Source: an uncultured Halobacteriales archaeon (lineage in GTDB: Archaea; Halobacteriota; Halobacteria; Halobacteriales; SW-7-71-33). Taken from it: a stretch of DNA of 33,752 bases. A program made the translations under genes and the position numbers. Location of the stretch: assembly GCA_964593395.1 (NCBI GenBank), contig CAZQHW010000005.1, positions 1 through 33,752 of the forward strand, written 5' to 3'. Shown here piece by piece: positions 1,502 through 32,213 of this stretch (positions are counted from its first letter, which is position 1; the number at the start of each line of letters is the position of its first letter). The notes under the pieces are model-generated. The model worked only from the letters and a program-made list of their open reading frames with translations. It did no database searches and was not told where the DNA came from.

Positions 1502-1643
1502 TGTGTCCTTTTCCAGGGGACGTGACTGAATGAGTGTGTCGGTCGAGCGTGACCGTCGGAGACCCGCACCGGCGCCGGTACGGCGCCACGGGCCGGGTCC
1601 CGGATGGAGTACGCACTTGTGAGTGGCCAACGAGAGAGGCGCC

Positions 1644-7493: not shown

Positions 7494-7748
7494 TCATCGG
7501 TCGCCTCGCGAGCGCACGAAGAGGGACACAGGCGAGGTCACCAGGTGAGACCCCGGCGTGAACACCGCGAGGAGGATGTAGCCGATCACGAGACTGACCG
7601 CACGACGGTCGAGTCCGGTCCGTCGTTGCCACGCTTCGGCGTCGAACCCACGCGCCCGCCAGAGGTAGACAACGAAGTGCTCGAAAGCCAGGCAGTGGGG
7701 TCGCCAGCACCCTCCTCTCGTCCATCGCGGGGTCTCATCCCGATACAC
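7494..7748 (-). CDS. possible small hypothetical protein
   Basis: 84-aa ORF. By my hand count the third codon position is G or C in about three quarters of codons. One hydrophobic segment (AVSLVIGYILLAVF). No recognisable family. Confidence 0.25.
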   Translation of the reverse strand: MYRDETPRWTRGGCWRPHCLAFEHFVVYLWRARGFDAEAWQRRTGLDRRAVSLVIGYILLAVFTPGSHLVTSPVSLFVRSRGDR

Positions 7749-7845
7749 GTCTGTCGTCCGTCACGTCACGCCGGTCCGAACGCCCGGATAGTACGTGACG
7801 CTGAACGGGGCAGTCCGGTTGGAGAGGTGGCCGGGGGCCGACCGT

Positions 7846-8724
7846 TCAGCGCTCCCCGAACAGTTCCCGCTTGTCCCGGCCGGTGTTCCAGGAGGCGAGC
7901 CACTCCCGGACTGGAAGCCGGCGGGAGGGGTCCTCCTCCAGGTAGCCCGGCGTCTGGAAGTAGTTGGTGATGGTGACGAGGACGACCCCGCCCAGCGTGT
8001 TGCCGACGAGCACCGGGAGGACGAACCCGCCCATACCGGCGGCGAGCGTCGTCTCGCCGATGAACACGAGGTACATCACCTCGGTGCTGGAGACGACGAC
8101 GTGGTACAGGTTGCCCAGCGGGATCGCGAGAAAGGCCATGTAGATGAGCGCGAACCGGGCGACCGAGGAGCGTACGCTGAAGTCGAGCCAGACGACGCCG
8201 GCGACGATGAAGCCGGCGAACGCCCCCTTGAACAGCAGCGGGATCGCGTCCGTCTCCAGGCCCGTCGAGGCGATCGAGATCGCCGCCGTCTGTTCGGCGC
8301 CGGAGAACACGCCACCGAAGGCAAGCGCCGCCGCTCCGCCCGCCGCCCCGACCAAGTTACCGGCGAGGATCAACAGCCACATCGCCAACAGCGCCGGCAC
8401 GCTGGCCATGCGCTCGATTATCAGTGCCACCGGCGGCACCGTGTTCTCCGTGTACAGCTGGTAGTTGCCCATGATGATGTAGACGAACCCCATCGGGTAG
8501 AGGATCGCACTCAGAACGGGCGTCTTGTCGGTCGCCGACGACACCGTCACGTACAGCAACACCGTGATCGTGATCGCGAACCCGGCCGCCAGCGCGCTGA
8601 AGAACAACTCCCGAGGGCTCCGTGATATCTCCTCGTCGGCGTCGACGATGATCCGCTCGAAAATCTGCTCCGCAGTCAACCTGTCCCGCAACTGCTTGTA
8701 GTCTCCGTCGCCCTCAGTCTCCAT
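7846..8724 (-). CDS. formate/nitrite transporter (FNT) family channel protein
   Basis: 292-aa ORF with six hydrophobic helices. FNT-like motifs: LAGNLVGA, a conserved His in GNLYHVVVSSTEVMY, and C-terminal LVGNTLGGVVLV. Confidence 0.75.
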   Translation of the reverse strand: METEGDGDYKQLRDRLTAEQIFERIIVDADEEISRSPRELFFSALAAGFAITITVLLYVTVSSATDKTPVLSAILYPMGFVYIIMGNYQLYTENTVPPVALIIERMASVPALLAMWLLILAGNLVGAAGGAAALAFGGVFSGAEQTAAISIASTGLETDAIPLLFKGAFAGFIVAGVVWLDFSVRSSVARFALIYMAFLAIPLGNLYHVVVSSTEVMYLVFIGETTLAAGMGGFVLPVLVGNTLGGVVLVTITNYFQTPGYLEEDPSRRLPVREWLASWNTGRDKRELFGER

Positions 8725-19591: not shown

Positions 19592-20056
19592 TCACGGATC
19601 GACGTGCTCACGCAGCAGCGCCGCCCGCCGATCACGGCCGAGACGCTCGTATGCCGCTGCCTCGTACGCGAGCGACAGCACCGGCACCCGCCGGTCGTCG
19701 AGGGTGACGTACTCGCGGTGTGCCTGCAGGTCCGTCGGCGGCTCCCACTCGTCCCCTGGGTCGCGCTTCTGCAGGCCACCCATCACCTCTACTCTGAGGT
19801 CCTCGACCGAGAGCACGCCGAGATGCGAGCGGATCCCGTCGTGGGTGGAGCGGGTCACCGGTTCCACGACGCAGTCGTCGAACTGCTCCTCGACCCGGTA
19901 GGCGCCGTGGGCACTCGTCTGGACGTCAACGTCACGGGGGTCGACGGGCACCCCCTGCAGGGCGAAACTGGTGCTGCCGGTGAGTGCCCACGTCACCCCG
20001 TCGAGGTCGTCCACGAGGCGGCGGACGACCGAGGCGTGTGTCTCCGGGAGAGACAT
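19592..20056 (-). CDS. nucleotidyltransferase-fold (pol-beta superfamily) protein
   Basis: 154 aa from the ATG at 20054-20056 (MSLPETHASVVRRLVDDL...). GS...DxD signature (TGSTSFALQGVPVDPRDVDVQT). The rest of the 562-aa ORF 19592..21280 is an out-of-frame overlap with the tail-fibre-like gene and was discarded. Confidence 0.6.
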   Translation of the reverse strand: MSLPETHASVVRRLVDDLDGVTWALTGSTSFALQGVPVDPRDVDVQTSAHGAYRVEEQFDDCVVEPVTRSTHDGIRSHLGVLSVEDLRVEVMGGLQKRDPGDEWEPPTDLQAHREYVTLDDRRVPVLSLAYEAAAYERLGRDRRAALLREHVDP

Positions 20057-20150
20057 CAGTCCCACGTTCGTCTGGCACGGACAAGTGCGTTTTCGAGGGA
20101 CCGACCGCCAGGAGCTGGAGCCGTTAGCCTGGGATGTTCGAGACGGCTGG

Positions 20151-22133
20151 TTACTCCCCGTCGGGACCGGGACCAGTGTCGTCCAAGCCCAAGTGGTGCT
20201 CGACGGCCGCCAGTCGGTCGCGCAGCGCCTCGTTCTCCGCCTCGAGGTCGTCGATGCGCTTGGCCTGTTCGTCGATGCGCTGGTCCCTTTGTTCGAGTTG
20301 CTCGCGAGCGTCGTCCAGTTCCCCGGAGAGGCCCTGGATGGCGGCCAGCGCGACGCCGTCGGCGTCGACGTTGGCGATGTGGTCGTCGCGGGGCCCAAGC
20401 TCGAAGGCGTCGAAGAAGTCCTCGGCCATCGGCCCCATGTGGGTGACGCCGTCCTCGGTGTCGTACTCCCAGGTGCTGACGTCCAAGTCCCGCACCCGGT
20501 CGAGCACCGCCGGCGGGTCCACCGGGTCGACGTTCGACTTCGCGGTTCGGGAACTGAGTTGGCTCCAGGTGCCGCTGCCGGCGGCGAGTTGCACGCCGCT
20601 GTTGAACCCGCTGTCGCTCCAGAGGGTGACGCCGCCGTCGGCCTGGAACACGACCTCGTTCGCGGTGGTCGACTCGACGGAGGTCGAGGAACTGTCCCCC
20701 CAAACGAACGCGCCCTGGGCCCGTGCCTTTGCCTGGCGCCCGGCGGCCAGAGAGTTGTCGGCGGCGGCCTCGTTGCCAGCGCCGCCGGGGACGGTCGCGT
20801 TGACCCCCGACGCCACGTTGATCGAGCCACCGGCGACCGTGGCGCCGCCGCCGCTGGCCTCGTTTCCGATGCCGCCAGCCACGCTCGCGGAACTGCCCGC
20901 CGCGGTGTTGTTCGTGCCCCCGCCGACGGTCGCGTACCGTGCGGTGTCGGTGCCGAAGTCGTCGGAGCCGGCGACGTTCTCAGCGCCACCCCCGACAGTC
21001 CCGTAGGCGTCGTGGACGACGTTGCTCGTCGCGGTATCGTCGGGGTCGGACGGGCCACCGCCGCCGATGGTCCCGTACGGGGCCTCGACGAAGTTCGCCC
21101 ACCCACCGGCGATGGTCCCGTACTGACCCTGAACAGCGTTAGTCGACCCGCCAGCGACCGTCGAGTAGTCCTCCTCGGCGAAGTTACCGGTCTGACCGCC
21201 CACGCCACCCCCGCCACCGACGGTCGCGCCGATTGACATTGCAGTGTTGTTCGCGCCGCCAGCGACGGTGGCGTAGTCACCGTCGACGGTGTTGTTCTCG
21301 CCGCCGGCGATCGTCCCCTCCTCGGCGGTGGCGGTGTTGTCGACGCCGCCGCCGATCACACTCGCTCGACCGTCGGCTGCGTTCTTGCTACCGCCACCGA
21401 CCACACCGAGTTGGCCAGCAACCGCGTTTCCGCCGCCACCGGCGATCGTGCCGCCCTGGCCGCTGACACTGTTACCCTGGCCCCCGCCGACCGCCCCGTT
21501 CTGGGCATCGACTGCGTTCGTCGCGCCGCCGCCGATCGTCCCGAACGTCGACCGCACGACGTTCGACTCACCGCCAGCGATCGCCGCAGCGAACGCGTCC
21601 GCGTCGTTTGTGGTGCCACCACCGACCGTCGCGTACTGTCCGTTTCCCTGGTTTCTTTCGCCACCGCTGACGGTCGCACCACCGGCCGCGACGGTGTTCG
21701 AGTTCCCACCGCCGATAGTCGCCTCGTCCCCGTCACCCTCGGTCGTGTTGCCGTAGCCGCCGCCGATCACCGAGTAGTCGCCGCGAGTCGTGTGCTGTTC
21801 GCCGCCGCCGACCACCGCGCCGGTGACCGGTCCGTTTGCCGTGTTCGTCGGCGCGCCAAACAGCACCGTGACCGGCGAGACCCCGGCCGTTGCGCTCGCA
21901 CGGGCGAGTGCGAACGTCTCTTGCCACTCGGTGCCGTCTCCAATTGAGACGACACCGGTGTCGGTGGCGAGAAACTTCGCGCCCTGTGTCGGTTCGTAGT
22001 TTGACCGTGCACTCGCCGCGTCACGAATCTCGATGTCCGTGTCGTACTGCCGGAAGTTCTCGTTCAGCGGGACGTGCCAGTCCTGTGCGCCCTCGTCGGG
22101 AACGTTGTATGAGTGGTTGGGTGTCTCGGGCAT
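20151..22133 (-). CDS. virus tail-fibre-like protein: receptor-binding-type N-terminal domain, Gly-rich beta-helical repeats, C-terminal S74-type intramolecular chaperone domain and coiled coil
   Basis: 660-aa ORF. The N-terminus has WHVPLNENFRQYDTDIE and GAKFLATDTGVVSIGDGTEW motifs. About 22 repeats such as YATVGGGTTNDADA and YSTVAGGSTNAVQG. The C-terminus SSRTAKSNVDPVD...VSTWEYD...HMGPMAEDF...GVALAAIQGL fits the S74 chaperone-of-endosialidase pattern and is followed by heptad-like EQLEQRDQRIDEQAKRIDDLEAENEALRDRL. Confidence 0.8.
   Translation of the reverse strand: MPETPNHSYNVPDEGAQDWHVPLNENFRQYDTDIEIRDAASARSNYEPTQGAKFLATDTGVVSIGDGTEWQETFALARASATAGVSPVTVLFGAPTNTANGPVTGAVVGGGEQHTTRGDYSVIGGGYGNTTEGDGDEATIGGGNSNTVAAGGATVSGGERNQGNGQYATVGGGTTNDADAFAAAIAGGESNVVRSTFGTIGGGATNAVDAQNGAVGGGQGNSVSGQGGTIAGGGGNAVAGQLGVVGGGSKNAADGRASVIGGGVDNTATAEEGTIAGGENNTVDGDYATVAGGANNTAMSIGATVGGGGGVGGQTGNFAEEDYSTVAGGSTNAVQGQYGTIAGGWANFVEAPYGTIGGGGPSDPDDTATSNVVHDAYGTVGGGAENVAGSDDFGTDTARYATVGGGTNNTAAGSSASVAGGIGNEASGGGATVAGGSINVASGVNATVPGGAGNEAAADNSLAAGRQAKARAQGAFVWGDSSSTSVESTTANEVVFQADGGVTLWSDSGFNSGVQLAAGSGTWSQLSSRTAKSNVDPVDPPAVLDRVRDLDVSTWEYDTEDGVTHMGPMAEDFFDAFELGPRDDHIANVDADGVALAAIQGLSGELDDAREQLEQRDQRIDEQAKRIDDLEAENEALRDRLAAVEHHLGLDDTGPGPDGE
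20694..21821 (-). repeat. intragenic array of about 22 degenerate 14-16-residue Gly-rich coding repeats (x-[AST]-[VI]-[GA]-G-G-x-x-N-x-[AV]-x-x)
   Basis: GG(G) cores recur at residues 109, 124, 141, 157, 171, 187, 201, 216, 232, 246, 261, 277, 292, 306, 328, 343, 357, 381, 404, 420, 435 and 450 of the 660-aa protein. The pattern resembles YadA-head/Hep_Hag-type beta-roll repeats. Confidence 0.75.
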
Positions 22134-22146
22134 TGTTCTCGGGTGG

Positions 22147-22563
22147 CTACGGGCTGACCCCGCCGTAGCCGTGCTCGCCGTATGTCTGGTCGCCGTAGTC
22201 GTCTTCCGAGGACTGCGTCTGTGTGGTCGTCTGGGTCTGTGTGCCCGTCTGGGTCTGCGTTCGGGTCGACGTGGCCCCGGTGGTCGTCGGGGTGGCGGTG
22301 TCCGTGTCAGTCGTTGTGTCCGTCATCCGGGTGGCAGTACCGGTGACGGCGGACGTGGTGGCCACCGTCGTCCCCGTGCCACTGTCGGTGTCGGTGTCGC
22401 CCGTCGTCGGGGTGCCGCCGTACCCGAAGGTGGTCTCGGTCTGCTCGTCCTCGTTGTCGGTCCCGATCGCGCCACAGCCGGCCAGCGAGGCACCGACCGC
22501 CGTAGCCGTGATCGTCCGCAACAGGTCACGTCGCCGGGGCAGGTCGGTATCGGTCACCCGCAC
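22147..22563 (-). CDS. Thr-rich Tat-signal lipoprotein
   Basis: 138-aa ORF with a GTG start. Twin-arginine motif PRRRDLL followed by lipobox LAGC (Cys30). 44 of 138 residues are Thr, including TQTQTGTQTQTTTQTQ. Acidic/aromatic C-terminal tail DDYGDQTYGEHGYGG. The stop lies 13 bp upstream of the tail-fibre-like start. Confidence 0.65.
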   Translation of the reverse strand: MRVTDTDLPRRRDLLRTITATAVGASLAGCGAIGTDNEDEQTETTFGYGGTPTTGDTDTDSGTGTTVATTSAVTGTATRMTDTTTDTDTATPTTTGATSTRTQTQTGTQTQTTTQTQSSEDDYGDQTYGEHGYGGVSP

Positions 22564-22799
22564 CGCGCCTCGGTCCGTGGCACCTCGTCCGGACGCGGTC
22601 CCATCGCCGTCCCGGGGCCATGCCGTTCGCTCGTTTGCATGAGTTACGACTGTTCAGGCGCCCATCGTATCACACTTTTGACCAGAACCTGACATTATTC
22701 GGGGCGACTGACGGGTCGGGAGCGGAGGAGGCGACGGCGTCCACCGGTGTCGGCGCTGGAGGGGACCACCACGGGCGGTCGACTCTCAGGGGGGCAAGG

Positions 22800-23435
22800 T
22801 TACTCCTCGGCGGGGGGGAGTGCCCGCAGTTCGGCGGGAGAGACGCCGAGAAGCGCGAACAGTCGGTCACGGAACGCCTCGCCGTCGAGACCGTACTCGT
22901 CGGCGACCCGGCGACAGGCCGCCGGCGTCGCACCCGTGTCGGCAAGCGCCCGGAGCGCGAGCGCCGGCACGGAGACCGCCGACGCCTCCCAGGCGGGCGG
23001 GACGTCGACCGCACCGGTCGCCATCGCGGAGAGTTCCTCCTCGCCGGCGAGTGCGAGCGGGTCGACGGAGTCGGGCAGGAGAGCACTCGGCGTGAGCTCG
23101 TCCTCGCGGTAGGTGTCGAGCGGGACGTCGGGGTCCTTGACCACAACGGCGTACGCCGGGGTCTCGGGGGACGCCTCGACGGGCCCGAGCGGGTCGTCGG
23201 CGTCGCGGTCCGTCTCGAGGGCGGCGACGACCACGCCGACGCCCTCGCGTGCGTTCACCGCGTCGCCGACGCGGACCTCGCCGGTCCCGGGAGCGTCGGG
23301 GTCGCCGTAGTTCGCCCCCCGCCGCACGGCCTCGGCCTCGGCCCTGAGTTCGGGAGCGATGTCCTCCATCGCCGCGTGGTACTCCTCCTCGGAGACGTCG
23401 AACTCGTAGTCGTTCGGCGGCTCTGGTCCTGGCAC
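22800..23435 (-). CDS. acidic hypothetical protein (possible small beta-barrel domain plus helical C-terminal domain)
   Basis: 211-aa ORF with a GTG start 6 nt after the upstream stop. The central segment VRVGDAVNAREGVGVVVAA...VEASPETPAYAVVVKD weakly resembles DUF2945/Hva1-TUDOR-type barrels. No catalytic motif seen. Confidence 0.55.
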   Translation of the reverse strand: MPGPEPPNDYEFDVSEEEYHAAMEDIAPELRAEAEAVRRGANYGDPDAPGTGEVRVGDAVNAREGVGVVVAALETDRDADDPLGPVEASPETPAYAVVVKDPDVPLDTYREDELTPSALLPDSVDPLALAGEEELSAMATGAVDVPPAWEASAVSVPALALRALADTGATPAACRRVADEYGLDGEAFRDRLFALLGVSPAELRALPPAEE

Positions 23436-23441
23436 ACCTGA

Positions 23442-24362
23442 TCAAGGGACCTCCGGTCCATTGAAACTGTCGTACAACTGGTCGAGGTAGTTCCCGTACG
23501 ACTGTCCGTCGAGTCGTCCGGCGAACGTCTCGGCGACCAGTTCTTTTGGACTCGTCGTGGCGTAGTGGCTGACCTCTTGCAGCGCCGCCCGTCCCTGTTG
23601 TGTGGAGAGAGACTGCCCGCTGAGGGTGCCGTACTCGTCCGGGTCGGCGGCGAAGTGGTGTGCGTGGCCGGCCTCGTGGTGGACGACACCCTCGACTGTG
23701 CCGTCGGCCAACTGGTTCGCCACCGGGTGCTGGTTGACACCCCCGTCGACGACGTCCGGGTTGAGGTACAGTTCCCGGTCCGGAGCGTGGTAGTAGCCCA
23801 CTCTCGAGGACGACGGGTCCCGGTCGGTCGTCGTGACACGGTCGATCGCGAGGGCGTCGTCGAGTCGCTCGTGGTCGACGCCGACCAGAGCGTCGGCGAC
23901 ACGCTCCTGTGTGGCCTCGCTCAGTCCGTCGAGGTCGGCGTCCACGGCGCCGAACTCCTCGACTAAACGTCGCTCGGCCTCGGTCGCGTCGTCCGTCGCG
24001 GTCGGCCCGGCCAGACGCTCGCGCAGAGCCTTCTCGGATATCGGGTAGCGTGTGTCGTCCGGGGCACTGTACCAGTAGAAATCGTCGCCGCCGTCGTCGG
24101 GGGTCTCCTCGACCTCGACCTCGGTGTCGCCGACGGTCGTCGTCTCGCCGGCGTCGGGGAGGTCGACGTCGTCCGGTGACGGACGAGGGGCACCCGTGTC
24201 GGCGTCAGGGGCGTCCCCGGCGTCGGCCCCGTCGTCACCGTCGATGGCCGCGGCGGTCGCCAGGCCGCCGGTTGCGCCCGGCAACTGCCGTGCGCGGGCG
24301 TCGTTGCCGGCCTCGACCGCCGGACTCCACGTCGACTCGTCGCCGTTGGATCCCCCACCCAC
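23442..24362 (-). CDS. HExxH zinc-metallopeptidase-like protein (gluzincin; ATLF/M34-like or ImmA/IrrE-like topology) with acidic disordered N-terminus
   Basis: 306-aa ORF with a GTG start and no internal Met. C-terminal domain: ...RELYLNPDVV...GVVHHEAGHAHHF...(about 30 aa)...SHYATTSPKELVAETFAGRL. This is an HExxH followed by an ExxAExFA-like third-ligand motif, as in anthrax lethal factor and Zmp1-type enzymes. Confidence 0.6.
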   Translation of the reverse strand: MGGGSNGDESTWSPAVEAGNDARARQLPGATGGLATAAAIDGDDGADAGDAPDADTGAPRPSPDDVDLPDAGETTTVGDTEVEVEETPDDGGDDFYWYSAPDDTRYPISEKALRERLAGPTATDDATEAERRLVEEFGAVDADLDGLSEATQERVADALVGVDHERLDDALAIDRVTTTDRDPSSSRVGYYHAPDRELYLNPDVVDGGVNQHPVANQLADGTVEGVVHHEAGHAHHFAADPDEYGTLSGQSLSTQQGRAALQEVSHYATTSPKELVAETFAGRLDGQSYGNYLDQLYDSFNGPEVP

Positions 24363-24705
24363 ACGTCCTCTGTTTCCGTGTGACCGTCGTCGCGAAATAA
24401 CTGTTTGGTACGGACGGAACGCGCCGACGACTCGTCTGGTCTGGTCGGCCCGCTGGTGGGGCCCGTCGGGCGACCCCCCCGGTGCGCCACGCCCCCCACG
24501 ACGACCGGTCGTCGCCCACCCGCTCAGTCGGCAGGGTCCCGTGACCGCGGGATGCCACGGCCACCGTCACGAGGGCGAGTCCGACTGCCACGGAAACGAA
24601 AGTCGGGAGGGCCGACAGAGAGCGTGTGTCAGCGCCTGCGACTGCAGTCTCACTTGCAGAAACAGGACGGCCCGTATTACTTGGGTGAGCCGCCAGACGG
24701 TACCC

Positions 24706-27243
24706 ATGAGCGATGGACGGATCGCGGCGGCGGTCGACCGAACGATGACCACCGTCACGACCTACAACAGGGCGGTGATACTGGTGATGCTGGTCGCGAC
24801 CGCGCTGGTCGTGCCGGGCGTGCTCCAGCTGGAGATGGAGGGCAACAACGGCCTCGACGTCGAGGAGCAGACCACGGTCGCGGAGAAAGCCGACTACATC
24901 CAGGAGAACTACGGCGAAGACAACGAGAACGAACCGACGACGGCCACACGAAGCGTGTACGTCCGGGCCGACAACGCCCTCTCCCAGACGGTCATGCTGG
25001 ACGCCTTGCGCTACCAGCGAGACGTGATAGGGGCTTCGGCGGTGAGCGACCGCCTGGCCGAGAACGGGATCACCGGCCCACCGACCCTCGTCGCGACGGA
25101 GTTGGCTGACACAGAGAACCCCACCATCGAGGAGCAGATAGCCGCCCTGGAGTCGGCGAGCGAGACCGAGTTCCAGGCGGCGCTCCAGGCGGCGTTCGCA
25201 CAGGACCGGGAGGCGCTGCAGTTCCTTCCGCGGTCGTTCTCGCCGGAGACCGGCACCGCCGAGTCGTTCCGGATGTCGTTCGAGTTCACCGTCGACCAGA
25301 ACGCCGACGCAAACGACCTTGCCGGGCCGTCCGTGCCGACCGCCGTCACCGAGACGCTGTACGGCGCCACGCAGGACCGCTCTACCGACGCCGTGGAGTA
25401 CTTCACCATCGGTGATGCGGCACGGGAGTCCTGGACACAGCAGCGACAGAGTGACCTGATCGAACTGATCGTGGTGCCGGCGCTCGTTCTGATCCTGGCG
25501 GTGCTTGCGTTCACCTACCGTGACATCGTCGACGTGGTGGTCGGGTTCGTCGGCGTCCTGCTGTCGGTGTTGTGGATGTTCGGCGTGCTCGGCTGGCTGG
25601 GCGTGCCGGCGGGCCTGGCGGTCGTTATCGGACCGGTGCTCGTTATCGCGCTGTCGATCGACTTCGGGTTGCACGTGTTCATGCGCTACCGCGAGGAGCG
25701 CGGTCCCGAGGAAGCGATCCAGCCGGCGATGGACCGGGCGACTTCGAGCGTGGTCGTCGCCTTCCTGCTCGTGACCGTGACCGCGGCGATCGGCTTCCTG
25801 TCGAACCTGATCAGTCCGGTGGCCATCGTTCGCGACCTCGGGATCGCCATCACCCTCGGGGTGCTCTCGTCGTTTCTCATCTTCGTGACACTGGTGCCGG
25901 CGCTGAAAGTCAGCATCGACGGCCTGCTCGAACGGTTCGGGCTCGACCGCCGGAAGACGGCCCTGGGGAAGGGTCGCTTCCTGCGACCGGTGCTCACCGT
26001 CGGCGTCCGGCTTGCCCGCCGGGCGGCACCCGTCGTGGTCGTCGTCGCACTGGTCGGGGGACTGGCCGGCGGCGTGGCCGTCACCCAGGTCGACCAACAG
26101 GGTGTCCAGACCGACTTCGAGGTCGCCGAGTGGAAGACCGAACTGCCCGGACCGCTGGCCTGGGAGTCCGCCGACCTGCCCTTCCAGACAAACCTCGAGT
26201 ACGTTCAAACCGAGTTCCAGCGCAGCGGCGGCGGCAGCCTCACCCAGATGCTGATCGAGGGCGACCCGACGGCACCGGAGACCCTGGAGCGGGTGTCGGT
26301 CGGGACCGACGCCGCCGCAGACACCGACGTGGCGTTCGAACAGGGCGGCCAGGTGCGTGTCATCTCACCGCTGTCGACGATGCAGCAGGTGGCCCAGCGC
26401 GACGAGCAGTTCGCCAGCGTGTTCGCCGAGGCCGACACCGACGGCGACGGTGTCCCCGACCGGAACGTCGCGGCGGTGTACGACGCCCTGTTCGAGGCCG
26501 CGCCCGACGACGCGAGTCGGGTGATAGAGCGCACCGACGGCGAGTACCGCTCGCTGCGGGTGCTGGTGCCGGTCCAGTCCGACGCCGACAGGGGCGACCG
26601 CGGCGACGCCATGCGGGCCGTCGCCGACGAGATGGAAACCGACGGCGTGACCGTGACCGCGGTCGGGTCGGCGACTCTGACGAACGCCGAGTTGGGCGTC
26701 CTCGCAGACGGTATCCTCCGGACGCTGGTGCTCGCGCTGGCGGTGATCGGGGCCTTGCTGACCGCGGTGTACCGCCTGGAGTACGGTAGCGCCACGCTCG
26801 GCGTGGTGACCGTCGTGCCCGTCGCGCTGACCGTCGGGCTGGTGTTCGGCAGCATGTTCGTGTTCGGCGTGCCACTGACGTTCGTCACCGCCCTGCTTTT
26901 GAGCATCGCCGTCGGACTGGGCGTCGACTACAGCATCCACGTCTCCGACCGCTACGCACAGGAGATCGCCGACGGCGTCGACTCGCTCACCGCACTAGAG
27001 ACTGCAGCCACCGGCACCGGCGGCGCCCTGCTCGGCAGTATGCTCACCTCGGGGATCGCCTTCGCGACCATGCTGTTGCACCCCAGCCCGCAACTGCGCT
27101 CGTTTGGCGCACTCGTGGTGTTCGCCCTGTCGCTGGCGTTCCTGCTCAGCGTCGTGGTCCTGCCGAGTATGCTGCACCTGTGGAACAGCCGTGTGCGGTC
27201 GACGCCGGCGCCGGAGGGCCCTGCCGTCGCGAGCGACGACTGA
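24706..27243 (+). CDS. RND superfamily exporter (MMPL/SSD-type, 2 x 6 TM)
   Basis: 845 aa from the ATG at 24706 (MSDGRIAAAVDRTMTT...). Two homologous halves, each with 1 TM, a large soluble loop and a 5-TM bundle (e.g. LSVLWMFGVLGWLGVPAGLAVVIGPVLVIALSIDFGLHVFMRYREE, and LLSIAVGLGVDYSIHVSDRY in the second half). Confidence 0.9.
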   Translation: MSDGRIAAAVDRTMTTVTTYNRAVILVMLVATALVVPGVLQLEMEGNNGLDVEEQTTVAEKADYIQENYGEDNENEPTTATRSVYVRADNALSQTVMLDALRYQRDVIGASAVSDRLAENGITGPPTLVATELADTENPTIEEQIAALESASETEFQAALQAAFAQDREALQFLPRSFSPETGTAESFRMSFEFTVDQNADANDLAGPSVPTAVTETLYGATQDRSTDAVEYFTIGDAARESWTQQRQSDLIELIVVPALVLILAVLAFTYRDIVDVVVGFVGVLLSVLWMFGVLGWLGVPAGLAVVIGPVLVIALSIDFGLHVFMRYREERGPEEAIQPAMDRATSSVVVAFLLVTVTAAIGFLSNLISPVAIVRDLGIAITLGVLSSFLIFVTLVPALKVSIDGLLERFGLDRRKTALGKGRFLRPVLTVGVRLARRAAPVVVVVALVGGLAGGVAVTQVDQQGVQTDFEVAEWKTELPGPLAWESADLPFQTNLEYVQTEFQRSGGGSLTQMLIEGDPTAPETLERVSVGTDAAADTDVAFEQGGQVRVISPLSTMQQVAQRDEQFASVFAEADTDGDGVPDRNVAAVYDALFEAAPDDASRVIERTDGEYRSLRVLVPVQSDADRGDRGDAMRAVADEMETDGVTVTAVGSATLTNAELGVLADGILRTLVLALAVIGALLTAVYRLEYGSATLGVVTVVPVALTVGLVFGSMFVFGVPLTFVTALLLSIAVGLGVDYSIHVSDRYAQEIADGVDSLTALETAATGTGGALLGSMLTSGIAFATMLLHPSPQLRSFGALVVFALSLAFLLSVVVLPSMLHLWNSRVRSTPAPEGPAVASDD

Positions 27244-27266
27244 GCACGCGCCTGGTCGCCGACCGG

Positions 27267-27536
27267 TCAGCCACTCCCGAGGACGCCGACGGCGAACGAG
27301 AGAACCAGGACACCCGTTACGACCGCTGTGCCCAGATACGTGACCCCCGTCCCCAGCAGCGCGAGACTGGTGCCCGGAACGCCCGTGTCGAACACCCTGT
27401 CCGCCACCAGTTCCCCCGCCGAGTCGGACTGGCCGACGACGGCAGCCGCGAACAAGAGGTACAGTCCGTCCAGGGGGCCGACGACCCACACCACGTCGTC
27501 GGGGTCGAGTGCGGCGTGGAACTCGCGGAGAAACAC
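27267..27536 (-). CDS. possible small membrane protein
   Basis: 89-aa ORF with a GTG start (VFLREFHAALDPDDVVWVVGPLDGLYLLFAAAVVG...GTAVVTGVLVLSFAVGVLGSG), with two hydrophobic segments. The upstream frame is interrupted by an in-frame TAA (see findings). Confidence 0.35.
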   Translation of the reverse strand: MFLREFHAALDPDDVVWVVGPLDGLYLLFAAAVVGQSDSAGELVADRVFDTGVPGTSLALLGTGVTYLGTAVVTGVLVLSFAVGVLGSG

Positions 27537-27679
27537 CTCCTCCGTGTCGAACTGGTCGAGGTCGCGGGGTTACCGGCCCAGTCGGGCGCCCACGGTCGTC
27601 AGCGTGCCGTCGAACCCCGCGGCGACCAACTGGTTTCGAGTCCGGCGCCGGGTCGATAGAACGGTGGCGGCGACCGTGC

Positions 27680-29923
27680 TCAGGCGAGCAGGTCCGGGTC
27701 GAAGTGGCGCATCCGGCCGGTGTCCTCGAGGTAGGCGGCGAGGTCGTCGTACAGGTCGGTGACGTCCTCGTGGTCGGGGTCGGTGCGGAGGGTGGACCAG
27801 TCGCCGACCAGAACGCAACAGCGCTGGGCGCGGGTCATCGCGACGTTCAGCCGCCGGGGGCCGTCCGCCGGACGCCCCAGAAAGCCGATCCTCCCGTCGT
27901 CGTTGCTGCGAACGAACGAGATGACGACGACGGGCCGCTCACTGCCCTGGAAGGCGTCGACGGTGTCGACCGTGGCCTCGCCGGCGTCGGCCACGCGGTC
28001 GGTGAGGTGGGCCTCGATCGCGTCGACCTGGGCGGCGTAGGGCGTGATGACGCCCACGTCGCCGGGGTCGACGCCGTCGTCACGCAGACGGTCGACGAGG
28101 TGGGCCACGAGTCTGGCCTCCTCGGGGTTGGCGTAGGAGGTGCCCTCGCGGCGCTGGGTGCCGCCGATGTCGTAGCCGACGACCGGTTCGCGGTCGGGCA
28201 GCGGGTCGACGTCGAGGCCGGTTCGCAGCGACCGCCCGTAGAACTCGCGGTTGGGGAAGTACGCGATGTCGCGGTGCATCCGGTACTGGGTGCGCAACTG
28301 CAGGCCGACGTTCTCGAACACGCCGCCGTCGGTGTACACGTGCTCGAACAGCGAGAGGCCAACGGCGGTGTCCGGCGGCGTCTCGGTGCGACTAAACGGC
28401 GGCAACTGGCGGTGGTCACCGGCGAGCACCACCGTGTCCGCGCTGGCCATCGGGATCATCGAGGTAACGGTCGTCGTCTGGGTCGCCTCGTCGATGATCG
28501 CGAGGTCGAACTGCCGGTCGATCGCGGCGGCGCTGCCGTTGGTGGCGGCGACCACGGCGGCGTCGCCCGGGGCTGTCCCGTACCACTTCTGCACGCGGTC
28601 GCTGTTCGAGCGACGAACGTTCCGGCGGTCGATCGTCAGTTCGCCGCTGCCGTGCTGGCCGTGGGCGTGCAGCGACCCCGGGTCTGGATCGCCGGGAGTG
28701 CTCTCGCCCACGAGGAGGTTGTCGACGGCCTGGTTCGAGTCCGCACACACGAGCACCCGCTCGCCGGCGTCGACCGCCCGGCGGACCACCTCGACGAGCG
28801 TGCGGGTCTTGCCGGTCCCCGGCGGGCCGTGGACGCAGAACAGGTCGTCCGCGAGCAGGGCGTACTTCACGGCCGCCCGCTGCTCTTGATTCAGCGCGTC
28901 GTCTTTCGGGGTGCTGTCGGCGGCCCGTGGTCGGGTGAACGTGAGCGGTCGCTGTCCGGTGAGCACCTCCCTGAACGTGCGGTCCCGGCGGACGTCCTCG
29001 ATCGCCTGCGCCCGGCGGTCGAACGGGAGCGGGTTCAGCAGTTTCACCAGGCCGTAGCCCGCACGGTCCTCACGAAGGAACCGGCGCGTGGCGGCCACGC
29101 CCTCCACGTCGAGGTCCAGGGCGACGGACACGCGGCTGGTCGCCGTCTCGTCGACGGTACCGACCGCGGGGAGCCCGTCGGGACTGTGCTCATCGCTCGG
29201 CGGCACCACGAGCACGGGGTCACCCGGGTAGACTCCGAAGGCGTCGGAGACGAAGTGGTGTCGCTTGCGTGCGACACGTCTGCTCACGTCCAGGCGGTCG
29301 AACTCGATCCCGAAGGTGACCGTCGTCGTCCCTGGGTCGAACCCCTGGCTCCGCAACGCAGGCAGGGCGTCGTCACCGTTCTCGTACAGCGTCATGGGGT
29401 CGGCGTCCGCGACCGTCTCACGCCGCCGTTCGATGGCCGCAGTCCGCTCGCCCTCGAGGTAGCCGCGCACGTCGTCGAAAAAGGAGTCGGGGTCGACGCT
29501 CTCCCGAGGGGGCTCGCGGTCGTCGAACGGCGCCTGGTAGTAGTCCGGCTGGGGGTCGGGCACGTAGTCGGGGTGCCAGAATCGCAGGCGACGCGCAAGC
29601 GGCGTCTCGGCGAACTCCTCGACGGAAAGAAAGTCCCGGTCGTCGCCGTCGGCGTGGATCACGATCTTCCCGTGGACGTCGTGGTCGGTGTAGGCGACGT
29701 ACTCGCCGGTCAGGGCGGCGCTGTCGGGGGCGTGCAGCGGGAGACAGGTCCAGTCCGGGCGGTCCGGCGGCGCGAGCGCGTCGTAGTGTCGGGCAAAGCG
29801 GTACACCGTCGCGAGCGAGAAGTCGACAGGCTGGTCACGCTCTACAGCCGCGGCGGACGGGTCGCACAGCGTCGCAGTCGTGCGGTCGAACGCCCGAATG
29901 GCGCTCTCGAGGACCAGCGTCAT
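27680..29923 (-). CDS. superfamily 1B DNA/RNA helicase, Upf1/Dna2/Nam7-like
   Basis: 747-aa ORF. Motif I VHGPPGTGKT, Ia VLVCADSNQAVDNLL, II LAIIDEATQ, III VLAGDHRQLPP, V VDAFQGSERPVVVISFVRSN, VI RRLNVAMTRAQ. An N-terminal region of about 360 aa precedes the ATPase core. Confidence 0.9.
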   Translation of the reverse strand: MTLVLESAIRAFDRTTATLCDPSAAAVERDQPVDFSLATVYRFARHYDALAPPDRPDWTCLPLHAPDSAALTGEYVAYTDHDVHGKIVIHADGDDRDFLSVEEFAETPLARRLRFWHPDYVPDPQPDYYQAPFDDREPPRESVDPDSFFDDVRGYLEGERTAAIERRRETVADADPMTLYENGDDALPALRSQGFDPGTTTVTFGIEFDRLDVSRRVARKRHHFVSDAFGVYPGDPVLVVPPSDEHSPDGLPAVGTVDETATSRVSVALDLDVEGVAATRRFLREDRAGYGLVKLLNPLPFDRRAQAIEDVRRDRTFREVLTGQRPLTFTRPRAADSTPKDDALNQEQRAAVKYALLADDLFCVHGPPGTGKTRTLVEVVRRAVDAGERVLVCADSNQAVDNLLVGESTPGDPDPGSLHAHGQHGSGELTIDRRNVRRSNSDRVQKWYGTAPGDAAVVAATNGSAAAIDRQFDLAIIDEATQTTTVTSMIPMASADTVVLAGDHRQLPPFSRTETPPDTAVGLSLFEHVYTDGGVFENVGLQLRTQYRMHRDIAYFPNREFYGRSLRTGLDVDPLPDREPVVGYDIGGTQRREGTSYANPEEARLVAHLVDRLRDDGVDPGDVGVITPYAAQVDAIEAHLTDRVADAGEATVDTVDAFQGSERPVVVISFVRSNDDGRIGFLGRPADGPRRLNVAMTRAQRCCVLVGDWSTLRTDPDHEDVTDLYDDLAAYLEDTGRMRHFDPDLLA

Positions 29924-29941
29924 TCGCCTTCGCTCTACTCG

Positions 29942-29975
29942 GCCGCCGGCATATACCTTCGTGTCGGCCGGCGGC
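29942..29975. promoter_or_regulatory. 9-bp inverted repeat (GCCGCCGGC / GCCGGCGGC) bracketing a TATA-like ATATAC upstream of the helicase gene
   Basis: Arms at 29942-29950 and 29967-29975 with a 16-nt spacer atataccttcgtgtcg. The repeat lies 19-52 bp upstream of the helicase ATG (29923, minus strand). Function is inferred. Confidence 0.3.
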
Positions 29976-30087
29976 GACCGTCAGACCAGTCGGTCACCCG
30001 TCCGTACCGTTCATCAAGCGAAGTGCGGTTTATGCCACGGTGTGCAGGTGAACCGTTCGTCCCTGTCCGGGCGGCCGGGAGTTCGGG

Positions 30088-30300
30088 TCAGCCGTCGGTG
30101 ACCTCCTCGGGAGCGGCGGCGGCGATCCAGGCCTCCGGGTTGCCGGGGTCGCTGGCGACGATGAACTCGACACCGTCGGCGGTCGCGACCTCCCACGCGA
30201 GGTCCGCTCCCGGACGGGCCGGAACCGACGGCGGGTCCATCCAGCCAAGCGCCTGCAGTTCCGTGCGATCGACCGGTTCGACGTCGAGACGGTCGCTCAT
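30088..30300 (-). CDS. small acidic hypothetical protein
   Basis: 70 aa from the ATG at 30298-30300 (MSDRLDVEPVDRTELQALGWMDPPSV...GVEFIVASDPGNPEAWIAAAAPEEVTDG). Halophile-type acidic composition. No family assigned. Confidence 0.5.
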   Translation of the reverse strand: MSDRLDVEPVDRTELQALGWMDPPSVPARPGADLAWEVATADGVEFIVASDPGNPEAWIAAAAPEEVTDG

Positions 30301-30593
30301 ACGATCGAGCACCCGACCCGGACGTATCAACGTCCACGCCGCGTCTCCGAGCGCGAGAGTCGTTCACTCTGTCGTCGACGGGATCGCTCTCCGTGAGACA
30401 CCGAGACACCATTTAGATACCTCGGCGCACCACCGTCTGTCGTCCGGGGCTTACCCGACGGCCCCGGACTTCCCGACTGCCCTCCTCTGACTCGCCGCTG
30501 CTGTGGGGGGGCCGACGGGGCGGCCCGACAGGAAGCCGGGCCACAAACCGTCGTGACCCCCGGTTTCACGAGCCATTTCCGCGAATCCCGGCG

Positions 30594-30905
30594 CTGTACC
30601 GCGATACTACCGGCTACACCGTACGACGATCACGTCCAACTACGTCATCCGAGTGTACTCTCTACCGATAGTGTTCACCTGTACCATCCAACTATACCGT
30701 CTGAATGTACCGGTCACCTACATCATATAGCTACAATAGCTCGCTGCACCAGACAGGTCACTCGGACAGCACAGCGAGACCGTACAGCCGCATCCCATGA
30801 CTGTACGCTCTCGTTATACTGTGTAGCTACAAAACATAAGCGAGCCACGAGATATAGCTATACTGTATAGGTGTACCGTTTAGCTATACTTCTCAGATAT
30901 AGCGT
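30594..30905. repeat. lower-GC array of short repeated motifs (TAGCTA-core and TGTACC) upstream of the ParA-like gene; candidate centromere/operator
   Basis: Exact copies read from the sequence:
- TAGCTACAA at 30728 and 30824
- TAGCTATACT at 30855 and 30881
- ATATAGCTA at 30725 and 30852
- GATATAGC at 30851 and 30896
- TATACTGT(G/A)TAG at 30815 and 30859
- TGTACC at 30595, 30680, 30706 and 30872. Confidence 0.55.
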
Positions 30906-30918
30906 CTGACTTAGGTTT

Positions 30919-31800
30919 ATGGTCGAGGGTGAGAGAGGATGGCCCATGCTGACCTACGCACCAGTCTCGGAGGCGGGCGGCGTGGGCAAGACCACCACGG
31001 CGGCGACGCTGGCCGTGAGTCACGCCCGGGCGGGCCAGAACGTCCTCGCCATCGACATGGACACCCAAAACGGCAGCCTGACGTATCTCTTCGGTCCGGA
31101 CTACGACCGCGGCGACCCGGACACTGACAACCTGGTGCGGCATCTTGTCGGGCGGCCCAACGGCGACTTCGACGACCTCACTCACGAGGTCGAGGCCGGC
31201 GTCGACCTGATCCCGTCGCACAACATGCTCGAGGACCTCCACGAGTTCCTGCTCAACGAGAAGGAACAGGCAGAGCGCTTTGGCGACTCATACAGCATGT
31301 ACCGTCAGCTCCACCGCGTCCTCCGGGAGAACGACGTTCGTGACTCGTACGACGTGGTGATAGTGGACACGGCGGGCAAAGCCGGACCGATCCTCTACAA
31401 CGCCCTCGTGGCCGTTCGAAACGTCGTCATCCCGTTCGAGGCGACCGCAAAGGGCCAGGAGTCGATCGAGGGCCTGGACGACCTCGTCGACGGCCTGGAG
31501 AAAAACGTTGACGTCGATGTCGGCGTTTTGTCGGTGGTCCCGATCGGGTACAAGGACACCCGCGACCAGCGCGCCGTCCTGGAGAATCTCCGTGACGGGG
31601 GGTTCCCCGTGCCGGTCGTCGTCGGGGAACGCTCCTCGCTGTTCGAGGGGTGCTGGAAACAGCAATGTAGCCCATACCGCTATATCGATCAGCACCGGAG
31701 TCGCGAGCGCGACTACGAACTCGAGACCCTGGAGCAGTTCGACGAACTGGCCCGCCACCTGGAGCGCGACGCCGGGCTCCTCAAGGAGGTGACCGCCTGA
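30919..31800 (+). CDS. ParA/MinD-family P-loop ATPase (partition-type) with atypical Walker A
   Basis: 293-aa ORF (alternative ATG at 30946). Walker A reads SEAGGVGKTT where canonical ParA/Soj reads KGGVGKTT. A-prime VLAIDMDTQNGSLTY. Walker B YDVVIVDTAG. Confidence 0.85.
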   Translation: MVEGERGWPMLTYAPVSEAGGVGKTTTAATLAVSHARAGQNVLAIDMDTQNGSLTYLFGPDYDRGDPDTDNLVRHLVGRPNGDFDDLTHEVEAGVDLIPSHNMLEDLHEFLLNEKEQAERFGDSYSMYRQLHRVLRENDVRDSYDVVIVDTAGKAGPILYNALVAVRNVVIPFEATAKGQESIEGLDDLVDGLEKNVDVDVGVLSVVPIGYKDTRDQRAVLENLRDGGFPVPVVVGERSSLFEGCWKQQCSPYRYIDQHRSRERDYELETLEQFDELARHLERDAGLLKEVTA

Positions 31801-32213
31801 TGGGGCTGAAAAGCGGCTCCCGCGACGCCGGTCTGGACGAGGAGGAGGCCGACGAGACCGACACGCCGGCTCCCGAGGAGACTGTCAAGGAGCCGGAGAA
31901 CGACGACGTTGAGGTGTCGGATGGGACCGGCGACCCGCCGGGCGCCAGCGTGGGAACCGACGACCGCCCGTCGATGGAGTCGATCCCCTACAAGCTCCGC
32001 CGGAGCAAGGTGAACGAGGGCCGCGAGCAGGTGCCCTTCTTTCTGCGGGACGAGGTGATGGACGGCGAGGCAGACCTGCAGGACAGCCTGGAGGCGATGC
32101 TGGACGAGCAGGTGTACAAGTCCGACTACCGAGAGGCGGCGATGATAGTCGCCCAGCGCGAGCCCCAACTCGTGGCTGAGGTGTTACGAGAGTGGGGCTA
32201 CGACCTGGACTGA
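31800..32213 (+). CDS. acidic ParA-associated protein, possible ribbon-helix-helix centromere-binding adaptor
   Basis: 137-aa ORF whose ATG overlaps the ParA stop (TGATG). The N-terminal ~60 aa are acidic and look disordered. A basic patch YKLRRSK follows, then a strand-helix-helix-like pattern (QVPFFLRDEV / ADLQDSLEAML / YREAAMIVAQREPQLVAEVLREWG). Confidence 0.6.
   Translation: MGLKSGSRDAGLDEEEADETDTPAPEETVKEPENDDVEVSDGTGDPPGASVGTDDRPSMESIPYKLRRSKVNEGREQVPFFLRDEVMDGEADLQDSLEAMLDEQVYKSDYREAAMIVAQREPQLVAEVLREWGYDLD

Follow-up and report, generated by a model that had tools for sequence, protein, structure and literature searches.

Described fibre systems and a haloarchaeal fibre gene

Phage fibres such as the K1F endosialidase, T5 pb1, and the GA-1 neck appendage have an N-terminal attachment module, a trimeric fibre logic, and a C-terminal Peptidase_S74 domain, in which a Ser and a Lys lie five residues apart and helices follow. 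The same i, i+5 spacing of the Ser/Lys dyad is known from endoNF and MYRF, and the MYRF transcription factor represents a eukaryotic exaptation, that is, a cellular reuse of the phage S74 trimerise-and-cleave module. Export of a folded protein on the signal of another is known from the Tat "hitchhiker" complexes, e.g. E. coli HybO-HybC and DmsA-DmsB, which are redox enzymes that contain cofactors, as are the known examples in general. In contractile tails and extracellular contractile injection systems (eCIS), a gene following Baseplate_J precedes a fibre gene with a short N-terminal anchor, and eBAP domains have been described at these joints (PMC12923769). A survey of the literature on S74 in archaea, on haloarchaeal tail-fibre-domain proteins, and on haloarchaeal Tat hitchhiking returned no description of the system reported below.

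The fibre gene (20151..22133, minus strand) lies in a 33.7-kb stretch of haloarchaeal DNA, which is called the window in this study. It has an ATG start codon, its ORF is intact, and its GC3 value (0.84) is comparable to those of the adjoining genes. The 660-residue product has no signal peptide, as the initial annotation had claimed. No start codon lies between the in-frame upstream stop codon and the ATG, which rules out a concealed N-terminal extension or signal peptide. Directly upstream lies a gene for a lipoprotein, which was mentioned only in passing in that annotation; the two genes are called the cassette here.

The fibre shares its C-terminal Peptidase_S74 domain, its N-terminal attachment module, and its trimeric logic with the S74 phage fibres. 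Unlike them, it has no virion genes nearby, a UspA1/YadA-type beta-roll shaft, and a Tat lipoprotein partner rather than a baseplate protein. With the trimeric autotransporter adhesins (YadA, UspA1, and BoaA) it shares the sequence and the fold of the head repeats, and an adhesive role is likely. In contrast to these adhesins, it lacks a signal peptide and a C-terminal membrane anchor or translocator (no anchor family was found with Pfam), its archaeal host has no outer membrane, and it would depend on S74, not on an anchor, for trimer folding. The bacterial "tail fiber domain-containing proteins" of Chloroflexota, Planctomycetota, and other phyla, which are likewise chromosomal and non-viral, are closest over the repeats and the S74 domain (36-45% identity). 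However, these bacterial homologues have their own Sec signals and an FTYQGRL-type N-region, while the haloarchaeal fibre begins with a phage N-domain, is signal-less, and is accompanied by an exported partner encoded by its own gene.

It was established that virion genes are absent from the window, in agreement with the initial annotation: neither a virion gene nor an integrase was found among the plausible ORFs by Pfam or PHROGs scans, and a tRNA search found no tRNA. A PHROGs search with the fibre gave coiled-coil matches only. Five S74-type loci, namely the window and four homologous loci, are free of baseplate, sheath, tube, and capsid genes within 10 kb. Thus, the fibre does not qualify as a virion tail fibre belonging to a tail or baseplate module. 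As the window covers only 33.7 kb, the genome may still encode a tail-like particle elsewhere. Two unannotated genes (22800-23435 and 23442-24362) are located directly upstream of the cassette. They were rejected as cassette members because no other locus has a homologue of either. A small ORF 18 kb off the cassette matches a phage protein family.

The initial annotation had left it undecided whether the gene is a domesticated fibre or the last remnant of a decayed provirus. I found more than 4200 homologues of the fibre (best E = 1e-215), which excludes a chance ORF. The closest ones (71-76% identity) are likewise intact and retain the partner gene. Close homologues reside in cellular contexts without virion genes and with a like upstream lipoprotein, which favours domestication. 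A functionless proviral remnant would agree with the viral origin of the modules, with the two unannotated genes at 22800-24362, and with the phage-family match in the small ORF, but this reading is largely refuted and can hardly be maintained. The gene is demonstrably intact, its catalytic dyad is present, its codon usage is host-like, no decay is seen in this copy, its closest homologues are intact next to their partner genes, the window has no integrase, tRNA, or virion gene, and the cassette is kept over many genera in varied cellular contexts.

Three modules of the fibre

The fibre is composed of three modules, which are an N-domain, about 22 repeats, and a Peptidase_S74 chaperone with a coiled coil. 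This domain composition, proposed in the initial annotation, is demonstrated by profile, sequence, and fold evidence, and every motif that had been quoted for the protein was located at its given position.

The Peptidase_S74 chaperone core corresponds to residues 527-590 (20364..20555, minus strand), and residues 527-660 correspond to 20154-20555, as had been annotated. Pfam Peptidase_S74 (PF13884) matches residues 527-577 above the gathering cutoff (E = 7.9e-8; 32.9 bits against a cutoff of 22), and most of the homologues carry a precomputed PF13884 match. Ser527 is kept in 116 of 119 aligned homologues and Lys532 in all 119. Thus, the S74 assignment was borne out. The MyRF ICA domain (7dc3) is among the fold matches of the fibre with a probability of 0.91, although MYRF differs from the fibre in host domain, architecture, and function. 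It is predicted that Ser527 is the nucleophile, that Lys532 is the base, and that the chain is cut between Leu526 and Ser527; autocleavage itself is inferred. The predicted released chaperone fragment includes a C-terminal coiled coil (residues 591-647; 20193..20363, minus strand), which is a single long helix in the structure model. Pfam coiled-coil families (e.g. DUF7310) match the C-terminus only below threshold, and a comparison of the C-terminal 160 residues with PDB sequences gave nothing but coiled-coil noise.

The middle part is a shaft of Gly-rich repeats of about 15 residues (residues ~103-461; 20751..21827, minus strand). I counted 19 strict repeats and about 22-23 in total, with a period of mostly 15, which agrees with the annotated number of about 22 YadA-head-like repeats. 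For the repeats, a match to the UspA1 head (3pr7) was obtained with an E value of 1.4e-21, and a Foldseek search with the fibre model found the UspA1 and BoaA heads, supporting a beta-roll of the UspA1/YadA-head type. The Pfam YadA_head and Hep_Hag models gave no match at E <= 1. Between the shaft and the predicted cleavage site lies a conserved segment (residues 462-526; 20556..20750, minus strand; FVWGDSS...GGV...GSGTWSQL), in which G465, W478, D480, and W523 are invariant or near-invariant columns. With pLDDT values of 85-98, it is the best-modelled part of the fibre.

The N-domain (residues 1-75; 21909..22133, minus strand) is a phage-fibre-type attachment and trimerisation module and the proposed docking domain, judging from conservation, an AF2 model (pLDDT 78), and fold matches. 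Its consensus is TPNH.YN.P..G..DWH.PLNENF..D.D.E.RD...GAKF.ATDTG....GDG..W. The domain is kept in 76 haloarchaeal loci, and 30 of the top 120 fibre matches have it and lack a signal. The whole N-domain family comprises 1054 clusters at 50% identity, and in the cluster representatives the domain is nearly always at the extreme N-terminus. The only internal case (P0220), considered as a fusion protein of the partner and the N-domain, turned out to be a degenerate duplication.

The initial annotation had likened the N-terminal region to Mtd_N/HylP-N fibre heads, and this holds only in part. Mtd_N (PF18454) matches the window fibre below the cutoff (E = 0.18; 12.2 bits against 26.3) and is also sub-threshold in seven of eight close relatives, but it is significant (E <= 1e-3) in 11 of 121 family representatives, with a best value of 3.7e-7. 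The top PDB fold matches are HylP1, GVE2 ORF18, and Mtd, all of them weak (E >= 0.34), and tail fibres make up almost the whole of the top 50 in BFVD, where the best E value is 1.7e-3 and the matches are individually weak. A search of PDB sequences with the N-domain profile found nothing significant. Since the fold matches are individually weak, the claim is only partly supported for the window protein itself. Across the family, the N-domain occurs in fusions with PL14, beta-helix, S74, BclA_C/C1q, GH28/43, and further modules, which are of kinds typical of phage receptor-binding proteins and depolymerases.

Relatives of the N-domain were also found beside baseplate genes in viral contigs, indicating that the module is viral in origin. 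In one viral contig (L008), the gene order is a gp25-like gene, Baseplate_J, an ORF ending with STYGYSEFGYNENGYGGVW, and a fibre starting with NWHIPLNENF; in another (L087), Baseplate_J is followed by a fibre with the full N-domain. The ORF at the adaptor position of L008 has no Pfam match to Tail_P2_I. A tblastn search of 50,697 phage genomes with the fibre found no match, and low-complexity masking may be part of the cause.

A lipoprotein with an invariant tail precedes the fibre

The partner gene (22147..22563, minus strand) encodes a protein of 138 residues, whose sequence was read as a twin-arginine signal, a lipobox, an FGYGGT motif, a Thr-rich linker, and a C-terminal YG tail. Its N-terminus, PRRRDLLRTITATAVGASLAGC, contains the twin-arginine motif PRRRDLL, a hydrophobic region, and the lipobox LAGC. 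Thus, the annotation of the upstream neighbour as an exported lipoprotein agrees with the pattern PRRRDLL...SLAGC, although export is inferred from this reading. The tail, DDYGDQTYGEHGYGGVSP (22150..22203, minus strand), has three aromatic-Gly units with a period of 5 and is, from a comparison of tails, the proposed docking peptide. The spacer of 13 nucleotides (22134..22146, minus strand) from the partner stop codon to the fibre ATG is operon-like. Pfam and PHROGs scans assigned no family to the partner, and its homologues bear only the name "hypothetical".

Is this gene a conserved partner of the fibre? A like-built lipoprotein gene is present upstream of the homologous fibres in the four loci L001, L002, L003 (twice), and L004. 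My survey covered 1.35 Mb of haloarchaeal loci, from which six-frame translation yielded 11,874 ORFs. Of the 40 ORFs with a Thr/Pro linker and a YG tail, 39 directly precede a co-oriented N-domain gene, at a distance ranging from an overlap of a few bases to about 120 nucleotides. The pattern [YF]G-x3-YG-x3-YGG is invariant in all 37 distinct tails. A twin-arginine signal is present in nearly all the YG-tail partners, and a lipobox in most of them; some carry LamG, CBM6/35, or PPC domains, while the N-domain genes following them are signal-less. A search seeded with the partner recovered a like arrangement in Haloarchaeobius. These results establish the conserved pairing, and the lipoprotein is a conserved partner of the fibre, not a chance neighbour. 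Fusion of the two products by read-through or frameshifting was rejected: the measured spacers (0-27 nucleotides, plus two overlaps of one nucleotide) are spread over all three reading frames, so the products are separate.

The pairing is not universal. Of the 96 N-domain genes, no more than 39 are directly preceded by a YG-tail gene; the other 57, among them the S74-type members L025 and L082, are not. At four loci, a protein with a Phage_T4_gp19 tail-tube domain and no signal takes the place of the YG-tail partner, an arrangement that does not fit surface display. These four loci were considered as contractile-system or provirus clusters, and this was rejected because they are small cassettes in cellular surroundings.

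The order of adaptor and fibre genes in the cassette is shared with the baseplate-fibre joints of contractile tails and eCIS, as is a conserved N-terminal anchor on variable distal modules including S74. In contrast, the "adaptor" of the cassette is an exported lipoprotein, and identity of the N-domain with any eBAP class is not claimed. It was assessed whether the gene encodes a spare receptor-binding fibre for a virus, a tailocin, or a contractile injection particle encoded elsewhere, with the cassettes as a source of alternative fibres and the upstream protein as an adaptor or assembly factor. The N-domain beside Baseplate_J in viral contigs, the receptor-binding and depolymerase modules of the family, and the gp19-type protein paired with the fibre in four loci would fit this reading, as would the eCIS fibres with conserved short N-terminal baseplate anchors, some of which have S74 (PMC12923769). 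Nevertheless, it is rather unlikely. The twin-arginine signal and the lipobox place the YG-tail partners on the cell envelope, not in a particle assembled in the cytoplasm; moreover, none of the five S74-type loci has a baseplate, sheath, tube, or capsid gene within 10 kb, and the tblastn search of phage genomes was empty.

Adjacency of the two genes can also reflect a functional link without binding, as there are no interaction data. The genes may be merely co-regulated, and the fibre may exit by lysis, in vesicles, or through an unknown exporter, or may stay inside the cell. Docking and co-export have no experimental support, and neither the 57 N-domain genes without an adjacent YG-tail gene nor the signal-less gp19-type partners speak for a joint. 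However, I consider that non-binding products are a doubtful explanation for 39 of 40 YG-tail genes preceding an N-domain gene. The tail is invariant while the bodies on both sides are variable, which is the pattern expected of an interface, and the gene order equals the viral order of adaptor and then fibre.

Proposed surface display and its meaning

The reading preferred here, to which I give a probability of about 0.5, is that a virus-derived trimeric fibre has been domesticated for the haloarchaeal cell surface, where it would be docked on the lipoprotein tail after co-export by Tat and serve as an adhesin. Gene 1 of the cassette would supply a Tat-exported lipoprotein with a Thr/Pro-rich stalk ending in the invariant three-unit YG tail, and gene 2 the signal-less fibre beginning with the 75-residue phage-fibre attachment domain. 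The fibre may trimerise in the cytoplasm with the aid of its C-terminal S74 chaperone, which would then excise itself between Leu526 and Ser527; both events are inferred from the known behaviour of the family and the conserved Ser/Lys dyad. The N-domain trimer would next bind the YG tail through a joint inherited from the baseplate-fibre connection of a virus. The basis for inferring this docking is the near-obligate gene pairing together with the viral contigs. The viral evidence for the tail is one clear contig, L008, where the aromatic-Gly spacing is 5 and 7 versus 5 and 5 in the cassette tails; a scan of viral contigs for YG tails gave 78 pattern matches, but the query was too short for any of them to be confirmed.

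In the third and weakest step, the folded complex might cross the membrane on the twin-arginine signal of the lipoprotein. As in the Tat hitchhikers, a signal-less folded subunit is encoded beside a twin-arginine partner, but only the adjacency is observed for the cassette, and co-export of the fibre is a hypothesis. I know of no precedent for the hitchhiking export of an elongated trimer of ~150 kDa. Three acidic homologues encoded by high-GC genes bear a twin-arginine signal of their own, so that Tat is plausible as an export route for fibres of this kind. Finally, the lipid anchor and the stalk would display the fibre with its UspA1/YadA-type shaft as an adhesin, a role inferred from the repeat type.

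Could the displayed proteins act against viruses instead? The fibre or the YG tail might mask receptors or capture parts of incoming viruses that use the same baseplate-fibre joint, which is apparently shared with haloarchaeal viral contigs. The cassettes are variable, are often present in several copies per genome, and occupy different positions in related genomes, and such behaviour is typical of genes in virus-host conflict. An antiviral device is nonetheless quite improbable. The N-domain of a viral fibre is occupied in the assembled virion, leaving a displayed tail without an obvious target; linkage to a known defence gene is absent, and the polysaccharide lyases and carbohydrate-binding modules of the family would remain unexplained.

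Surface display of a domesticated fibre may be one instance of a general haloarchaeal plug-and-socket arrangement made from a viral baseplate-fibre joint, although this extension is tentative and has less than an even chance of being correct. Three-unit YG tails on Tat lipoproteins, either bare or with lectin or carbohydrate-binding domains, would capture N-domain trimers folded in the cytoplasm, and the complexes would be exported by Tat and displayed as a large, fast-changing surface repertoire of receptor-binding modules of the phage type. The cargo would include adhesive fibres, polysaccharide lyases, beta-helix enzymes, and C1q-like heads.

Even without the mechanism, two unannotated families, the N-domain and the YG-tail lipoprotein, are defined here, for which databases say "hypothetical" or have no model. 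If docking and export are true, the fibre would be the first fibre-type cargo of Tat hitchhiking, and the short invariant tail and the small N-domain would serve directly as a salt-tolerant tag pair for the display of trimeric proteins on haloarchaeal cells. It would also mean that whole receptor-binding modules, attachment joint included, have passed from viruses into cells, giving archaea a new way of building the cell surface.

A fibre gene in a cellular neighbourhood

The window is haloarchaeal DNA of about 69% GC. The fibre ORF (20151-22133, minus strand) has an ATG start and codes for 660 residues, and its third-position GC (0.84) equals that of the surrounding genes. Since the ATG is the first start codon past the upstream in-frame stop, there is no N-terminal extension able to hide a signal peptide. 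The initial annotation had assigned the C-terminus to the S74-type chaperones. Pfam agrees, placing Peptidase_S74 at residues 527-577 (E = 7.9e-8; 32.9 bits against a gathering cutoff of 22), on the same nucleotide span as first proposed. In an alignment of the fibre with 118 homologues, Ser527 is kept in 116 of the 119 sequences and Lys532 in all 119; I take them to be the Ser-Lys dyad with the i, i+5 spacing of the endosialidase and MYRF domains. The roughly 22 Gly-rich middle repeats noted initially were recovered as 19 strict ones and about 22-23 in total, mostly 15 residues long; their match to the UspA1 head (PDB 3pr7) has E = 1.4e-21. A full-length AlphaFold model (mean pLDDT 67; residues 400-520 very good) has as its best PDB matches the UspA1 head, the BoaA head, and the MyRF ICA domain.

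When every plausible ORF of the window was scanned with Pfam or PHROGs, no capsid, portal, terminase, tube, sheath, baseplate, or integrase gene was found, which bears out the earlier claim that no virion genes surround the fibre. The window also yielded no tRNA. The scans gave cellular genes, encoding transporters, kinases, a P-type ATPase, an MMPL protein, an SF1 helicase, ParA, and similar proteins. The observation of a stand-alone fibre-like protein is confirmed.

Several other features of the neighbourhood were recorded. A 98-aa ORF (1623-1919, plus strand), 18 kb from the fibre and overlapping the end of ORF 848-1657 (minus strand), matches the phage family phrog_34098 (function unknown) at E = 2.3e-38 and has no Pfam family. 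Two closely spaced minus-strand genes (22800-23435 and 23442-24362) separate the MMPL gene from the cassette, by which I mean the fibre gene with the lipoprotein gene upstream of it. Their products (211 and 306 aa) have no Pfam family and no homologue in any other locus; the 306-aa product has an HEAGH motif and only a weak PHROG match. The closest relative, locus L001 (6960-17766), has helicase, MMPL, nucleotidyltransferase, and P-type ATPase genes in common with window positions 19592-29923. Its cassette lies on the opposite side of the MMPL gene, and its fibre has 531 residues, the ~130 extra residues of the window fibre being repeats. In both loci an SF1 helicase, a ParA-like ATPase, and a small adjacent gene lie near the cassette (window 27680-32213; L001 4711-9200), and these regions may be an island or a plasmid-derived stretch. 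The GC content drops to 0.62-0.66 at 30-33 kb of the window.

Pairing of a lipoprotein gene with genes for the fibre N-terminal domain

The partner gene (22147-22563, minus strand) lies 13 nt upstream of the fibre gene. Its 138-aa product has, in this order, a twin-arginine motif and lipobox (PRRRDLLRTITATAVGASLAGC), an FGYGGT motif, a Thr-rich linker, and the end DDYGDQTYGEHGYGGVSP. A partner-type gene lies just upstream of the fibre in all four homologous S74 loci fetched (a 76%-identical MAG protein, Haloglomus salinum, Halobacteriales archaeon Cl-PHB, and a metagenome contig), and no virion genes were found within 10 kb in any of them. The Cl-PHB locus has a second pair of the same kind. 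In 1.35 Mb of haloarchaeal loci (11,874 six-frame ORFs), 40 ORFs have a Thr/Pro-rich linker and a C-terminal tail of aromatic-Gly units (YG tail), and in 39 of the 40 cases the next gene is a same-strand gene for a protein with the N-domain, which corresponds to fibre residues 1-75. The distance ranges from a few-base overlap up to ~120 nt (0-27 nt where the spacer was measured). Since the spacers fall in all three frames, partner and fibre are two separate polypeptides. The YG tail reads [YF]G-x3-YG-x3-YGG plus 0-5 residues in 37 of 37 distinct sequences. Visual inspection gives an RR signal in nearly all partners and a lipobox in most, and the body between signal and linker is absent or consists of Laminin_G_3, CBM6/CBM35, or PPC. 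All matches of a partner-side search are named hypothetical proteins; in two Haloarchaeobius genomes that it found, an N-domain gene lies 4-6 nt downstream of the partner. One could regard the fibre as the remnant of a decayed provirus, but this is very improbable: the ORF is intact, the catalytic residues are conserved, the codon usage is host-like, and the cassette is conserved across genera.

Seen from the N-domain side, a YG-tail partner lies directly upstream of only 39 of 96 genes, and some of the partnerless ones are second genes of a cassette (L003, L013). It remains possible, if unlikely, that the genes are linked while their products do not interact, or that the fibre is exported in another way. 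As an exception, four haloarchaeal loci have, upstream of an N-domain-S74 fibre, a gene with a Phage_T4_gp19 tail-tube domain (E = 1e-18 to 1e-30) at its end: L034 2652-3137, L040 9457-9978, L062 8166-9998, and L073 6469-8022. The domain is fused to CARDB repeats in two of the four. These upstream proteins lack a signal peptide, and no further tail genes were found nearby. I consider it doubtful that the window fibre is a spare for a particle encoded elsewhere. In ten Haloarcula loci (L023, L026, L027, L033, L035, L036, L042, L045, L049, L054), an N-domain gene without its own partner follows a GT4-type glycosyltransferase gene and converges on an opposite-strand second cassette, in which a ~730-aa YG-tail lipoprotein with CBM-like repeats is followed by another N-domain gene.

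The N-domain family and its viral counterparts

Residues 1-75 of the fibre match no Pfam, NCBIfam, or PHROG family. With a profile built from close relatives, the N-domain was found in 76 loci of haloarchaeal genomes of many genera and, in a library of 1.84 billion proteins, in 1054 cluster representatives at 50% identity (649 at E ≤ 1e-10). It nearly always starts at residue 1, and the proteins that have it are 83-824 aa long. Many members stand alone at ~97 aa (up to 104 aa among P0121-P0181; L064, L069, L071), with PS.GD.WIDTS as a frequent C-terminal ending. Haloferax elongans and Haloferax larsenii have such a short protein encoded after a PPC-domain YG-tail lipoprotein. The Mtd_N/HylP-N type of head suggested initially is unproven from the window sequence alone (Pfam Mtd_N, E = 0.18, sub-threshold) but plausible, given the Mtd_N matches of other members (best 3.7e-7; E ≤ 1e-3 in 11 of 121) and the fold matches. 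An AlphaFold model of residues 1-100 (pLDDT 78) shows a helix and then a small sheet. Its best PDB matches are HylP1 (a streptococcal phage hyaluronidase fibre), Geobacillus virus E2 ORF18, and Mtd, all at E ≥ 0.34; among predicted viral structures (best E = 1.7e-3), the top 50 are nearly all tail fibres, minor tail, Mtd_N, or collagen-like phage proteins.

Only about 12 of the 76 genomic N-domain genes carry repeats and S74. Over 121 family representatives, the C-terminal part matches polysaccharide lyase 14 in 12, a right-handed beta-helix in 9, S74 in 4, pectate-lyase-like in 3, and BclA_C in 3, with PKD, YadA_head, GH28, GH43, Peptidase_G2, and C1q in single members. Phage receptor-binding proteins and depolymerases have this same repertoire.

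In the 52.6-kb viral contig L087, a Baseplate_J gene is directly followed by that of a 383-aa protein with a full N-domain. Viral contig L092 encodes a 139-aa N-domain protein, and the tail-collar fibres of viral contigs L007 and L009 are 44-47% identical to the window fibre over their first 32 residues. Phage contig L008 has the order spike-like gene, gp25-like sheath initiator, Baseplate_J, a 248-aa ORF ending STYGYSEFGYNENGYGGVW, and a fibre gene starting ...NWHIPLNENFEKID. This YG-tail ORF occupies the adaptor position, and Pfam gives no Tail_P2_I call for it. In a catalogue of eCIS fibres, the fibre genes lie downstream of Baseplate_J/Tail_P2_I genes in ~90% of loci, and the very diverse fibres, some with S74, are anchored by short N-terminal domains (PMC12923769). 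In L087, a 190-aa ORF (7657-8229) two genes after the fibre has a YG-rich start (MSHVGYGRGGYGSGTYGDGGY), at the N-terminus rather than the C-terminus, and in L007 and L009 the ORF two genes before the fibres ends GYGRTLFGIGGYG. These cases suggest, without proving it, that in virions such fibres grip YG-rich peptides. That the cassette is an antiviral surface device is rather improbable.

NCBI already names chromosomal S74 "tail fiber domain-containing proteins" in haloarchaea and bacteria, so annotation already recognises the protein class, and MYRF is a known case of S74 being reused in cells. In the literature and family libraries searched, neither the N-domain family, nor the YG-tail lipoprotein family, nor their near-obligate gene pairing, nor the link to a viral baseplate-fibre joint was found described.

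Possible export and surface role

Bacterial homologues that share the repeats and S74 start with ordinary Sec signal peptides; in the haloarchaeal homologues (30 of the 120 top matches), which lack a signal, the N-domain comes first. Repeats and S74 are also present in three acidic homologues of about 905-922 aa (P0015, P0018, P0048; L093, L094), probably haloarchaeal and on contigs of 63-68% GC, which have their own twin-arginine signal instead of the N-domain. Tat is thus a credible route for such fibres. Haloarchaea secrete mainly by this pathway, and it can also transport subunits without a signal when these are bound to a partner that has one (HybOC, DmsAB). A pathway moving folded proteins suits a fibre that matures only after trimerisation and self-cleavage. 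In the literature searched, no description of signal-less haloarchaeal fibres carried by Tat with a partner was found.

Beyond the observed domains, gene pairing, and cellular context, I infer a domesticated virus fibre. Its folding and self-cleavage would take place in the cytoplasm, its N-domain would attach to the YG tail of the lipoprotein, and the complex may then be carried out by Tat. I put the probability of the whole chain, including the equally inferred adhesion, at about 0.5. The lipid anchor and Thr-rich stalk would hold the fibre on the cell surface, where its UspA1/YadA-like shaft may serve as an adhesin.
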